A stretch of 64,000 nucleotides of DNA from a phage. Shown in pieces: positions 7,847-12,247 of the stretch (positions are counted from its first letter, which is position 1; each line of letters starts with the position of its first letter). The position numbers and the translations under genes are program-made. Under the pieces are notes generated by a model. The model did not search any database. It was not told where the DNA came from and worked only from the letters and a program-made list of their open reading frames with translations. The stretch lies in sequence record NC_101838.1, one strand, 5' to 3'.

Positions 7847-7892
7847 TTTATTTTTAGATGGCCTTGACACCAGGGCCATCAATAAAGTAAAC
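7847..7892 (+). promoter_or_regulatory. repeated intergenic cassette: promoter -35 embedded in a stem-loop (copy 1)
   Basis: gtttatttttagatggccTTGACAccagggccatcaataaagtaaac; inverted repeat gatggcc/ggccatc encloses TTGACA. Confidence 0.5.
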
Positions 7893-7925
7893 TAACCACA
7901 GTTGAGCGGAAAAGGAGGCTTAAAG

Positions 7926-8045
7926 ATGAGCACTACACGCCAGCACACAAAGGTAACCATCATCGTTTGCATCATTGGGTACATCCTGGCGCAAATGTTG
8001 ATGGGTAGCGCCAACGGTGTCGCAAAATTTTTCTTAAACTTTTAA
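7926..8045 (+). CDS. small hydrophobic peptide (39 aa)
   Basis: Strong SD (aaaaggagg) before ATG; hydrophobic core IIVCIIGYILAQMLMG; below track cutoff. Confidence 0.35.
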   Translation: MSTTRQHTKVTIIVCIIGYILAQMLMGSANGVAKFFLNF

Positions 8046-8073
8046 TTGACAAGCTAACTTAAATCGATATAAT
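8046..8073 (+). promoter_or_regulatory. sigma70-like promoter (TTGACA-16-TATAAT)
   Basis: Perfect consensus hexamers upstream of the ORF at 8125. Confidence 0.6.
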
Positions 8074-8124
8074 AAGCACATAAACGGGAAAACTTCCCAG
8101 AACACACAAAAGGAGAAAAACACC

Positions 8125-8466
8125 ATGACTACTATGACCGCCTCAGAAAAAGCTATGCAGATCGCTGAACTGAAAAAACAGATCGCAGACCTTGAGAATA
8201 AGATCGATAACTTTGAAATCGACGAGGACAAGTACGACGAAAACTATGATGAATGGTTAGACGAGATCTACGGCGAAATTATGATCGGAAACATTTCTTT
8301 TCTTCCGTCGCGTATCCTCAAGGAGCTAGATCCTATCGCTTACCGCTGCGGATTTAGCGACTACATCGACAGCCTGGATATTGAGGACGATGAAGAATAC
8401 CAGGAATTACAGACAGAGTTAGAAGAAGCAAAAGAAGAGCTTGCGGAGCTGGAAGAAAACGAGTAA
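8125..8466 (+). CDS. hypothetical acidic coiled-coil protein (113 aa)
   Basis: ORF with aaaaggagaaaaac leader; highly acidic, heptad-like N-terminus. Confidence 0.55.
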   Translation: MTTMTASEKAMQIAELKKQIADLENKIDNFEIDEDKYDENYDEWLDEIYGEIMIGNISFLPSRILKELDPIAYRCGFSDYIDSLDIEDDEEYQELQTELEEAKEELAELEENE

Positions 8467-8513
8467 GCTTATTTTTAGATGGCCTTGACACCAGGGCCAT
8501 CAATAAAGTAAAC
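8467..8513 (+). promoter_or_regulatory. repeated intergenic cassette: promoter -35 embedded in a stem-loop (copy 2)
   Basis: Identical to the 7847 copy over about 45 nt. Confidence 0.5.
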
Positions 8514-8555
8514 TTTATACTGTTAACACTGAACTAATGCATAGGAGTTAAAACC

Positions 8556-8801
8556 ATGGCAGCACTAATCACCAAATATTATGCCCCTACCAACACCAAA
8601 AGCGCCCGTATCATGGTAAAAGGCTTCGGACGTAAAAAGGTGTACACCTGGGATTATGCCTTAGACATGGAAGACAACTACACCAACGCAATGACCGATT
8701 TTATTAATGAACTAAATAAGCAGATCTTGACAAGTTATAAAGTGACCGATATTGCTTATATAGGTGAAGGCGGGATCTGTTTTGTAGGCATTGTGAAATA
8801 G
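8556..8801 (+). CDS. hypothetical protein (81 aa)
   Basis: ORF preceded by taggagttaaaacc. Confidence 0.55.
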   Translation: MAALITKYYAPTNTKSARIMVKGFGRKKVYTWDYALDMEDNYTNAMTDFINELNKQILTSYKVTDIAYIGEGGICFVGIVK

Positions 8802-8850
8802 TTATTTTTTCGGTGGTCCTGGCTGCAGGGCCATCTATAAAGATAATTTA
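8801..8850 (+). promoter_or_regulatory. degenerate copy of the stem-loop promoter cassette
   Basis: gttattttttcggtggtcctggctgcagggccatctataaag shares the tatttttt...gggccatc.ataaag skeleton with the other copies. Confidence 0.35.
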
Positions 8851-8875
8851 TCAACACCATGAAAGGAGAAAGTAC

Positions 8876-9229
8876 ATGATCAGCGGGGCTAGTTTTATTA
8901 TTGGCGCTATTGCTACGGCTTTAATTGTAAACAAGATCCAATCTAAAAACGAAAAAGATAGCAACGCGCTCACAGAATACCCATTTTGGGTATTCAACGA
9001 CAACGAAGACTACATAATCAAGTACAAAGATGAGAGAGGCGACCAGGTAACACCGCGACCGATCCCAGCTTACAAGATGCAGGAAACACTATACCGCCTA
9101 AAGGCCGGAGGCGCAAAGATCGTAGACTTTTGGGGATATGATTGCAAGGATCAGGAGGTCATAAAACGTCGTATCCGGGCGATTCAGGCAAATATTGAAA
9201 TTAGTAAAGGGGAAATTTATGAAAATTAA
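8876..9229 (+). CDS. hypothetical membrane protein (117 aa)
   Basis: Internal ATG with gaaaggagaaag SD; N-terminal transmembrane segment (ISGASFIIGAIATALIV). Confidence 0.5.
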   Translation: MISGASFIIGAIATALIVNKIQSKNEKDSNALTEYPFWVFNDNEDYIIKYKDERGDQVTPRPIPAYKMQETLYRLKAGGAKIVDFWGYDCKDQEVIKRRIRAIQANIEISKGEIYEN

Positions 9230-9416
9230 TTTCGAAAAAATTGTAAAGCGCCCCCACGATTCCGAAGAGCTGCCGGAACGCCGCCAGCGTAACAATAAAC
9301 TGAATAAACCGAAAAGGTTCGGGAAGATCTGGAGGAATCACTATGATCGCAAATTACCGGGCCTGCTTTTGGAACGTGAACGACAGGCGGAACGATACCG
9401 CCACAAAGGCAAATAA
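9219..9416 (+). CDS. hypothetical basic protein (65 aa)
   Basis: Internal ATG with aaagggg SD-like motif; Arg/Lys-rich; followed by a terminator. Confidence 0.45.
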   Translation: MKINFEKIVKRPHDSEELPERRQRNNKLNKPKRFGKIWRNHYDRKLPGLLLERERQAERYRHKGK

Positions 9417-9423
9417 CAACCAA

Positions 9424-10609: not shown

Positions 10610-10698
10610 ATAAAGTGTTGCAATAACCTAAAAACCTGCTATATTAAAACTCAAGGGGGCAAGACGTTTGCCCCACACAAAACAAAGAGGAAAACATT

Positions 10699-11079
10699 AT
10701 GAAAAACACTACCAAGGCTATTGACACCGTTATGTTTAACCTGGTTACATTCCGTGAAGATATGAAAGATCTTCCACGTGAAACAGTGTGCGATCACATT
10801 GAAAACTATCGCAAACTAATCAAAGAGTTGCCCCTAAAACGTGACCAGTATGCGGCTAACGCTATGCTCAACGCCATGATCAAAAAGATGATCCAGTGTG
10901 ATTTAACCCTGGCCTATGACTATGCGGGTGGTCGTTTTGCAGTATACAATCAGCCCGTGCCTGGTATGGGCACCACCGAAGAATTGCACGCGCTCAATCT
11001 AAAACAAGACGTATGGGATAACATGCCCCGCGTGGTGGTGTGGGCAGAAAGCGGAAAGATTTACGGCGATAATTTTTAA
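10699..11079 (+). CDS. hypothetical protein (126 aa)
   Basis: ORF preceded by leader hairpin (gggggcaagacgtttgcccc) and aaagaggaaaac SD. Confidence 0.55.
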   Translation: MKNTTKAIDTVMFNLVTFREDMKDLPRETVCDHIENYRKLIKELPLKRDQYAANAMLNAMIKKMIQCDLTLAYDYAGGRFAVYNQPVPGMGTTEELHALNLKQDVWDNMPRVVVWAESGKIYGDNF

Positions 11080-11143
11080 TCAGGTAACAGGCGGCAAATA
11101 TGCCGCCTTATTGTTAAACAGAACTGCAAAAGAGGTACATAGA

Positions 11144-11515
11144 ATGGAATTTATTATTTTGGCTGTAGTAGTTGCCTTGTTCAACGCCTGGATCGCTGGC
11201 AAGATGGGTAGATCCGCCTTTTTATGGTTTATTATATCTATTTTCCTGGGGGTGGTTGCAACTATTGTACTTGTTATCCTTGCAATTGTTGACAAGGGGA
11301 ATAATAGAAAGGGTAAAGTATTTTCAGACCTGTACGACGCTCAAACGTTTGTCAACGCCTATTATAGTGATCTTCCAGTCTCCCTACGCTGCAGCCTGGC
11401 ACAACAAGTTTTCGATGAGGCTAAAACCAGAGATCAAGCCCATGAGATATGTTTAACTGAGGCGGATCGCCTATTTGAGAGGAATAGAAAATATGTGGGC
11501 CAACCGTTTAAATAA
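11144..11515 (+). CDS. hypothetical membrane protein (123 aa)
   Basis: Internal ATG; two predicted transmembrane helices (MEFIILAVVVALFNAWIAG ... FLWFIISIFLGVVATIVLVILAIV). Confidence 0.5.
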   Translation: MEFIILAVVVALFNAWIAGKMGRSAFLWFIISIFLGVVATIVLVILAIVDKGNNRKGKVFSDLYDAQTFVNAYYSDLPVSLRCSLAQQVFDEAKTRDQAHEICLTEADRLFERNRKYVGQPFK

Positions 11516-11714
11516 TGCCACGTTAATTAATCCCTTTAGTGAAGATTTGAAGCCAGCCGCCTGGCGTGATGGATTCAATAACGAACGCTTTATTTTCAAG
11601 CCTGATCTTGAGGAATTTTATAACAATGGATCGAACAACGACAGAGATAATTTTTCTTGTGGTGTGCGTAGTGATGGTACTCCTGGGGGCCATTGTAAAC
11701 CACGTCACTACTAA
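11493..11714 (+). CDS. hypothetical protein (73 aa)
   Basis: Internal ATG of track ORF 11475..11714 with gagga SD-like motif; overlaps neighbouring ORFs, so uncertain. Confidence 0.3.
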   Translation: MWANRLNNATLINPFSEDLKPAAWRDGFNNERFIFKPDLEEFYNNGSNNDRDNFSCGVRSDGTPGGHCKPRHY

Positions 11715-11734
11715 CAGGGGGAAAGGGGGAGACG

Positions 11735-11854
11735 ATGACACCCAAGGATAAGCCCCGCACCGATAAGGCGCGCCGTGTTATGGTATGGCTTGAGATCATC
11801 GCCCTTGAAATATTGTTAGGGGTAGGGATGTACTTTATCGCTGTAAGTAACTAA
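11735..11854 (+). CDS. small membrane peptide (39 aa)
   Basis: SD-like gggggaaaggggga before ATG; hydrophobic C-terminus (VMVWLEIIALEILLGVGMYFIAV); terminator follows. Confidence 0.35.
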   Translation: MTPKDKPRTDKARRVMVWLEIIALEILLGVGMYFIAVSN

Positions 11855-11858
11855 GAAC

Positions 11859-11888
11859 GGCCCCCCGATCATGGGGGCCTATCTTTTA
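11859..11888 (+). terminator. intrinsic terminator
   Basis: Hairpin ggccccccgatcatgggggcc followed by tatctttt, then an A13 tract. Confidence 0.65.
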
Positions 11889-11998
11889 AAAAAAAAAAAA
11901 ATTCTTCCGGGGTGTTGCAATCCGGTCCGGAATGTGGATAATAACAATCAACGGGGAGCTAATCCCCACCACCACAAAAACCAGAAAGGAGAAACAAA

Positions 11999-12199
11999 AT
12001 GAGCAACAATATCCGCGTTATTAACTTCAAAAAAGAAGAAAAAATTGCCGTGCTGATTGACGGTCAAGAAATCTTCAAGGGCGACTATGAAGATCATCAA
12101 ACGGCGATTAGTATCACTCGCGTGATTGGTTACCATAATTTTTACCCCCAAGGCGCTGAGGCAGCGGTTAAACGAATCAAAGAGATTGTAGGCCTGTAA
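11999..12199 (+). CDS. hypothetical protein (66 aa)
   Basis: ORF preceded by agaaaggagaaacaaa SD. Confidence 0.5.
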   Translation: MSNNIRVINFKKEEKIAVLIDGQEIFKGDYEDHQTAISITRVIGYHNFYPQGAEAAVKRIKEIVGL

Positions 12200-12200
12200 A

Positions 12201-12247
12201 ATTTATTTTTAGATGGCCTTGACTCCAGGGCCATCAATAAAGTAAAT
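12201..12247 (+). promoter_or_regulatory. repeated intergenic cassette: promoter -35 embedded in a stem-loop (copy 3)
   Basis: atttatttttagatggccTTGACTccagggccatcaataaagtaaat; near-identical to the copies at 7847 and 8467. Confidence 0.5.

Follow-up and report, generated by a model that had tools for sequence, protein, structure and literature searches.

The 64,000 nt stretch of phage DNA analysed here (sequence record NC_101838.1; hereafter the window) contains a repeated 49-nt intergenic cassette that is probably a composite element of the kind known as PeSLs, the stem-loop promoter cassettes of T4-type phages: it would act as a promoter in the DNA and as a hairpin in the sense RNA, and its copies are substrates for recombination. 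By sequence similarity the window is that of an rV5-like coliphage (Vequintavirus); all 123 phage records that match positions 7000-13000 are rV5-like phages of this genus, and the closest match over that interval is Escherichia phage pangalan, at 99.8% identity. The cassettes sit within a long series of small + strand genes of unknown function, the run to which the early transcription unit described for rV5 corresponds (Kropinski et al., 2013; PMC3606486). Elements of the PeSL kind are apparently undescribed in rV5-like phages: a search of the literature found no prior account of them, and the rV5 paper describes neither the repeat nor the hairpins (PMC3606486).

PeSLs are known in the T4-type phages RB49/phi1, T4/PST and KVP40/nt-1 (Arbiol et al., 2010, PMC2839356; Comeau et al., 2014, PMC4122927). 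By definition they run from the stop codon of an upstream ORFan through an AT-rich run, sigma-70-like -35 and -10 boxes and a stable stem-loop to the Shine-Dalgarno (SD) sequence and ATG of the next gene; G-T pairs are allowed in the stem-loop, which can take five positions, one of them 'overlapping the -35', and the elements are clustered in hyperplastic early regions (PMC2839356). The cassette corresponds in location (between small early ORFans, starting from the upstream stop), in promoter sequence (an AT-rich run and sigma-70-like -35 and -10 boxes, except in one diverged copy), in having a G-T-tolerant stem-loop over the -35 box, and in being repeated and clustered in a variable region with cassette-bounded indels, the DNA between tandem copies being lost in close relatives. 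A likeness to the T4-type cassettes had been pointed out in an earlier, sequence-only reading of the window, and the PeSL definition does fit, in a phage that is not T4-type.

Two exact copies of the 45-mer TTATTTTTAGATGGCCTTGACACCAGGGCCATCAATAAAGTAAAC lie at 7848-7892 and 8469-8513, and a third, with 2 mismatches, lies at 12203-12247, whereas no such repeat is expected by chance (none in 100 shuffles); the sequence-only reading had recognized these three near-identical copies of about 45 nt, with coordinates 1-2 nt off. A covariance model of the cassette, built from 19 distinct variants, gave four hits in the window, all on the + strand and scoring about 74-79 bits. The fourth (73.8 bits) is a diverged copy, here called copy D, which had been listed at 8801 as a degenerate copy and proves to be a true homologue. 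The copies and their promoter boxes are as follows.

7845..7893, + strand: cassette copy 1; lower stem 7845-7854 / 7884-7893, upper stem 7857-7866 / 7871-7880, loop 7867-7870
7864-7869 and 7888-7893, + strand: putative promoter of copy 1; -35 TTGACA 7864-7869, 18-nt spacer, -10 TAAACT 7888-7893
8466..8514, + strand: cassette copy 2; 46 nt identical to copy 1, upper stem 8478-8487 / 8492-8501
8485-8490 and 8509-8514, + strand: putative promoter of copy 2; -35 8485-8490, -10 8509-8514
8800..8848, + strand: diverged copy D; upper hairpin GGTGGTCCTG/GCTG/CAGGGCCATC, lower stem 8800-8809 / 8839-8848
12200..12248, + strand: cassette copy 3; loop ACTC, -35 TTGACT 12219-12224, -10 TAAATT 12243-12248

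Each copy does lie directly past the stop codon of one gene and ahead of the next, as had been claimed. The upstream stops are at 7843-7845 (TGA), 8464-8466 (TAA), 8799-8801 and 12197-12199 (TAA); the cassette starts 0-1 nt past the stop or overlaps its last bases, and its end is followed within 25-45 nt by the next ATG. Copy 1 shares its first base with the end of the stop codon of a 131-aa gene (7450-7845), copy 2 lies between the stop of gene 8125-8466 and gene 8556-8801, copy D overlaps the stop of the latter gene and precedes gene 8876-9229, and copy 3 lies between genes 11999-12199 and 12294-12593.

The sequence-only reading had placed TTGACA in the loop of a 7-bp inverted repeat, which has to be corrected: the repeat is 10 bp long (GATGGCCTTG/ACAC/CAGGGCCATC, with one T.G pair), and the TTG of the -35 box is in its 5' arm with ACA in the loop. 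The A/T-rich flanks pair as well (TTTATTTTT with AAAGTAAAC), and the whole cassette is a 49-nt hairpin, in which an A/U stem of 10 bp is separated by a 2x3 internal loop from a G/C stem of 10 bp that ends in a tetraloop. The same topology is found in all four copies, with folding energies of -21 to -25 kcal/mol and z scores of -4.6 to -7.6; copy 3 has A-U in place of G-C at one lower-stem pair.

Variants of the cassette were gathered from 13 loci, and 19 distinct variants were used for the covariation analysis and 21 for the comparison of strands. Across the 19 variants 99.2% of the cells pair, compared with 36-58% in slid-partner controls. Four lower-stem pairs have changed on both sides (AU/GC/GU, UA/CG, UA/GU/AU/GC and AU/UA), one of them passing from A-U through G.U to G-C across lineages, and the changes in the upper stem are all wobble-compatible (4/4). 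The covariation score was reached by none of 500 shuffles, although the few independent lineages make these statistics indicative only. The main copies do not vary in their stems. In copy D three transitions set the 5' arm of its upper stem apart from theirs, with pairing kept via G.U or C-G, and this copy is itself kept in every relative examined, with covarying pairs. The fold is better on the + strand in 21 of 21 variants (mean of -24.7 versus -14.1 kcal/mol) and every G.U pair points to the sense strand. It is therefore the sense strand that folds, in the simplest case as mRNA. The loop is hypervariable (ACAC, ACTC, ACGC and ACTT in the main copies, where the last two bases vary freely; GCTG, GTTG, GTAG, GTGG and GTAA otherwise), which speaks against a protein that reads the loop. 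These comparisons are indicative of a 49-nt hairpin that has been selected as a sense-strand structure.

An inverted repeat over a -35 box is also the classical layout of an operator, and the palindrome could bind a dimeric phage or host regulator that switches the early promoters off. The invariant stems of the main copies would agree with this, as would the anti-sigma-like early/late switch proteins that the phage encodes. However, the symmetry of the DNA is broken where RNA tolerates the change (55 G.U cells, and three of the ten positions in copy D are asymmetric), the compensatory changes alter both half-sites, which would be intolerable to a sequence-reading protein, and copy D has no promoter to regulate. 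The hairpin is probably not an operator, and we consider regulation of this type to be very unlikely.

At the DNA level, a consensus scan gave a match of 10/12 for TTGACA/18/TAAACT (copies 1 and 2) and of 9/12 for TTGACT/18/TAAATT (copy 3). No main copy departs from TTGAC, even at A and C, the two loop bases that the fold can do without, and the T-rich, UP-like run TTTATTTTT is positioned upstream of the -35 box at about -52 to -43. Together, the T-rich run and the two boxes with their 18-bp spacing would constitute an early sigma-70 promoter, and the three main copies are probable promoters of this class that are absent from rV5 annotations. Transcription would start about 7 nt beyond the cassette and serve the next small gene.

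In RNA that reads through from upstream promoters, the 49 nt would fold into a two-helix hairpin at the upstream stop, with the UP-like run paired with the -10 region and the -35 box at the apex. In the classical PeSL model the stem-loop is a terminator or attenuator that insulates each early gene ahead of a fresh promoter, a function that was proposed in RB49/phi1 and reporter-tested for one element (PMC2839356). The cassette has some of the traits expected of such a structure, in that it is intergenic and directly past a stop codon, and its upper stem is strongly G/C-rich (-16.3 kcal/mol) and followed by an A/U-rich segment. However, a U-tract is missing: CAAUAAAGUAAAC comes after the stem, and the T-run of the sense strand lies upstream of it. 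The hairpin is followed by CAAUAAAG on the + strand and CUAAAAAU on the - strand, neither of which is the U-tract of an intrinsic terminator. Furthermore, a terminator scan does not list the cassette sites, the ARNold/TransTerm-type annotations in rV5 and HdK5 locate terminators elsewhere, and the covarying lower A/U stem would be superfluous in an intrinsic terminator. A canonical terminator was rejected because of the missing U-tail and because both the scan and the annotated terminators miss the cassettes; the classical PeSL model in its entirety is unlikely to apply here.

In the early region of T7, RNase III processing signals such as R1.1 are intercistronic hairpins in early mRNA made by the host RNA polymerase. 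When folded, R1.1 has a 10-bp upper stem with G.U, a tetraloop, a 4x5 internal loop and a 9-bp lower stem. The cassette, likewise intercistronic, has the same succession of parts: an upper stem of 10 bp that contains G.U and is capped by a tetraloop, then an asymmetric internal loop and about 9-10 bp of lower stem. The loop sequence is unimportant in both. Because of this similarity in topology and position, RNase III-type processing or 3' stabilization ranks first among the RNA functions that we considered. On read-through early mRNA the hairpin would thus be a processing or 3'-end-stabilizing element, of which an RNase III-type site appears to be the likeliest form, and not a classical terminator. 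R1.1 differs in that it has no internal host promoter; the T7 promoters phi1.1A and phi1.1B lie on either side of it. Repeated imperfect palindromes that follow stop codons, fold in the transcript and affect mRNA stability also occur in bacteria, as REP elements in E. coli and as Correia elements in Neisseria; Correia elements in addition carry promoters and are cut by RNase III. Unlike the cassette, these elements are chromosomal, are present in hundreds of copies and are longer, or mobile with target duplications.

A bolder version of the composite reading, which we put forward tentatively and with more doubt than confidence, is that the same 49 nt are dual-coded, as a host-polymerase promoter in the DNA and as an RNase III-type processing or stabilizing hairpin in the RNA, and that such elements are shared by unrelated large lytic phages. 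If this were so, read-through and newly started transcripts would receive nearly the same 5' end, the upstream mRNAs would each gain a protective 3' hairpin, and, since a single repeat would combine both functions, a gene between two copies would be an autonomous, insulated and recombinationally portable expression unit.

The part of the cassettes in recombination is most evident between copies 1 and 2, which bound a module with the following composition.

7894..8514, + strand: 621-bp module bounded by copies 1 and 2; two genes and copy 2
7926-8045, + strand: 39-aa gene of the module
8046-8073, + strand: consensus promoter of the module
8085-8099, + strand: hairpin in the 5' untranslated region
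8125-8466, + strand: 113-aa gene of the module

Of about 120 records, 114 contain the module; five phages and one metagenomic contig lack exactly these 621 bp, among them magaca, ime, ECP32, phiWec189 and the contig, UViG_2051223002_000007. The genomes without it have a single chimeric cassette in which the left flank of copy 1 is joined to the right flank of copy 2. The flanks in magaca and ime are 100% identical to those of the module-bearing HdK5, and those in ECP32 and phiWec189 are closest (96-99%) to the module-bearing rV5. The deletion is therefore found on two haplotype backgrounds, which corresponds to at least two independent precise losses, and this comparison of genomes indicates that the module is dispensable. 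In addition, the paralogous position at which a given loop variant is found differs between genomes, and this suggests that the copies convert one another. These comparisons show the near-identical copies to be substrates for homologous recombination, through which the module was deleted at least twice and the copies were apparently homogenized. A search among relatives for genes gained or lost between cassettes thus yielded a clear case, with the module missing and a chimeric cassette left on two backgrounds. The gene shuffling that the sequence-only reading associated with the T4-type cassettes has a counterpart here in the loss of this module; it does not extend to the mosaic breakpoints of the region, which are discussed below.

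The precise cassette-to-cassette deletions on two backgrounds and the signs of gene conversion could also be accounted for at the level of DNA structure, with the 49-bp palindrome being a cruciform or a small mobile inverted-repeat element whose main effect is to cause breaks and recombination and not to control expression; an endonuclease VII-like protein is encoded nearby in rV5. The strand asymmetry of the fold would be unexpected for a cruciform, however, and neither target-site duplications nor new insertion sites were found, as copies occupy the same four positions in all of the genomes. Moreover, 46 bp of identity is enough for ordinary homologous recombination. We regard an explanation of this kind as highly improbable.

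The family of cassettes is small and confined. All four copies fall within 4.4 kb, and the covariance model found no fifth copy in the window or in the other 73 kb of pangalan (137 kb in total), so a genome-wide search of the kind envisaged in the sequence-only reading recovers the cluster and nothing elsewhere. The model also had no match in the parts of Av-05 (26 kb) and PVP-SE1 (46 kb) to which it was applied. With blastn the cassette was found in 120 records, all Vequintavirus and usually at three places per record, and nothing was found outside Vequintavirus at E <= 1. Pattern scans of IMG/VR and metagenomes gave a handful of contigs, all with the cassette in the flanking context of the Vequintavirus genomes (one was compared in full). 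Some genomes have four blast places; in two of them the 9 kb on either side of the match contain the same three copies and a copy D that has diverged less and probably accounts for the fourth place. The cassettes gave no hit in Rfam 15 at E <= 1 (positions 5000-17000 scanned).

A number of observations weigh against the composite reading. With regard to the likeness to PeSLs, the phage belongs to the Vequintavirinae and is not T4-like (a taxonomic, not a mechanistic, feature), blastn found no sequence similarity between the cassette and any T4-type phage, and the family consists of four copies in 4.4 kb, whereas T4-type PeSLs occur in dozens. The cassette also differs from PeSLs in that the entire promoter is inside a covariation-supported two-helix hairpin, in that one copy is promoterless and in that there is no U-tail, so that the terminator half of the PeSL model is unsupported. 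The likeness to T7 R1.1 is topological only, with no sequence similarity, and cleavage of the cassette is only predicted. Beyond the small number of lineages mentioned above, the covariation is marred by a C.A mismatch at a covarying pair in one variant (L025 copy D). With regard to recombination, two deletions in rV5_ev146 (about 0.5 kb and 5.5 kb relative to rV5) are bounded by 10- and 15-bp microhomologies, at the positions given here.

7470-7479 and 8885-8899: microhomologies in rV5_ev146; the deletions removed copies 1 and 3 and left one cassette

These deletions were accordingly rejected as cassette-mediated events, their boundaries being the microhomologies. Nor was there support for a preference of mosaic breakpoints for the cassettes: high-identity and low-identity blocks alternate throughout the region, with no concentration of switches at cassettes, and the switch near copy D is about 60 nt inside the next gene.

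Further points of this kind concern the promoter. Copy D has no -35 box, with CTGGCT in place of TTGACA, and yet its hairpin is kept in all genomes. In copy 1 of L019, an approximately 85%-identical relative, two 1-nt insertions lengthen the -35/-10 spacing from 18 to 20; its loop then has 5 nt and its internal loop one base more, and the hairpin persists (-22.6 kcal/mol). Neither the 18-nt spacer nor TAAACT is optimal, and the cassette sites do not figure in the promoter list published for rV5 (Kropinski et al., 2013; PMC3606486, Table S4), for which the search was restricted to spacers of 15-17 nt (PMC3606486). A search of the literature found no transcript data for rV5-like phages. Since copy D has lost the -35 box but kept the hairpin, the hairpin would have a role of its own, and together with copy 1 of L019 this suggests that it is more constrained than the promoter. 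By the same token the promoter appears to be dispensable and could be incidental. The cassette might then be an RNA element only, for processing, stability or protein binding, with an unused TTGACA...TAAACT; copy D is conserved equally well without a -35 box, the divergent relative alters the promoter spacing with the fold intact, and the -10 box matches at only four of six positions. This explanation does not account for the perfect conservation of TTGAC in the main copies, which extends to two loop bases superfluous to the fold, or for the T-rich run upstream, and the distance to the SD sequence and ATG (33-45 nt) resembles that of other promoters in a region which is otherwise rich in consensus sigma-70 promoters. 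We therefore find a pure RNA element distinctly unlikely, and favour the composite cassette, in which promoter and hairpin are both used.

Promoters are combined with hairpins in other ways in the same region, as listed below.

16005..16041, + strand: promoter P164 of rV5; -35 16013-16018, -10 16036-16041, 7-bp hairpin 16005-16023
7374-7430, 8046-8099 and 9901-9957: second cassette type; consensus sigma-70 promoter with a CGGGAA-N3-TTCCCG hairpin about 10 nt past the -10 box
20431-20523, 24507-24597 and 25661-25750 in PVP-SE1 (a different genus), early strand: layout of the second type, repeated

The first of these had been taken for a degenerate copy of the cassette at 16011. It was rejected as such, as the covariance model gives no hit there: the unrelated 7-bp hairpin (ATCCCTG/GTTGA/CAGGGAT) covers the -35 box of a separate promoter, the window's 16013 promoter, which is P164 of the rV5 list (PMC3606486, Table S4). 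The site is analogous to the cassette, not homologous. At one position of the stem the window has C-G, phage ime U.G and rV5 U-A, a stepwise compensatory series. In the second type, the (GG)CGGGAA-N3-TTCCCG(CC) hairpin has no T-run and is followed by the SD sequence and ATG; these hairpins may be 5'-terminal mRNA-stabilizing structures.

All seven genes flanking the cassettes belong to PHROGs of unknown function and have no Pfam match above threshold. The 81-aa product of gene 8556-8801, which follows copy 2, has relatives at 35-46% identity in several phage groups, namely phages of about 60 kb infecting E. coli, Cronobacter and Aeromonas (for example Greed and WildeMaa), Pseudomonas phages of 90-100 kb (for example KIL1) and Klebsiella phages of about 40 kb. 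The protein encoded by a macro-domain gene (3187-3642) is approximately 69% identical to genes of 168-kb phages that are presumed to be T4-like, and five small genes of the region are tied by rV5's own annotation to RB49, the PeSL-defining phage. As judged from such protein matches, small early genes do move between unrelated phage groups.

Several further observations were made on the window and its relatives. Positions 5470-6480, the 'non-coding' box of the rV5 paper, are gene-free and contain three direct repeats of 65-74 nt (5772-5957) and several shorter repeats; in PVP-SE1, positions 26986-27194 consist of three tandem units of 67-75 nt, the reverse complement of which has the same CTCGATC...TTTTC motifs. 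The interval in the window is a candidate origin or iteron region. In the tRNA cluster at 62103-62915, ARAGORN reports a 99-nt tRNA-like gene (62572-62670) with a four-base anticodon (atcc) and assigns it no definite identity. A weak Rfam match to Clostridium-PBP RNA at 10631-10701 (36.8 bits, E 0.058, with the gathering score at 94.4) is probably due to chance. Among the database records, 17 GenBank entries (MG0656xx) named 'Campylobacter phage' match rV5-like coliphages at 95-99% identity in the region, and their labels are likely to reflect host mislabelling or contamination. The record of Av-05 (KM190144, Vequintavirinae) contains a T4-type gene block at 11217-18593 (denV, regB-like, vs, tk and rI) that adjoins rV5-like structural genes; this record may be a chimeric assembly or a genuine hybrid.

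If the composite reading is correct, PeSLs, which have hitherto been found only in T4-like phages, would extend to the unrelated and therapeutically used rV5-like phages. The comparison of genomes provides evidence that recombination between copies removes gene modules, and the covariation analysis supplies what the PeSL papers do not contain, namely evidence that the sense-strand stem-loop is selected. As the stem-loop covaries and has outlasted the promoter, its likely role shifts from that of a terminator to one in RNA processing or stability. In practical terms, the rV5-like genomes would gain three probable early promoters that are missing from rV5 annotations, an apparently dispensable 621-bp module and, in the cassettes themselves, potential natural 'landing pads' for phage engineering.

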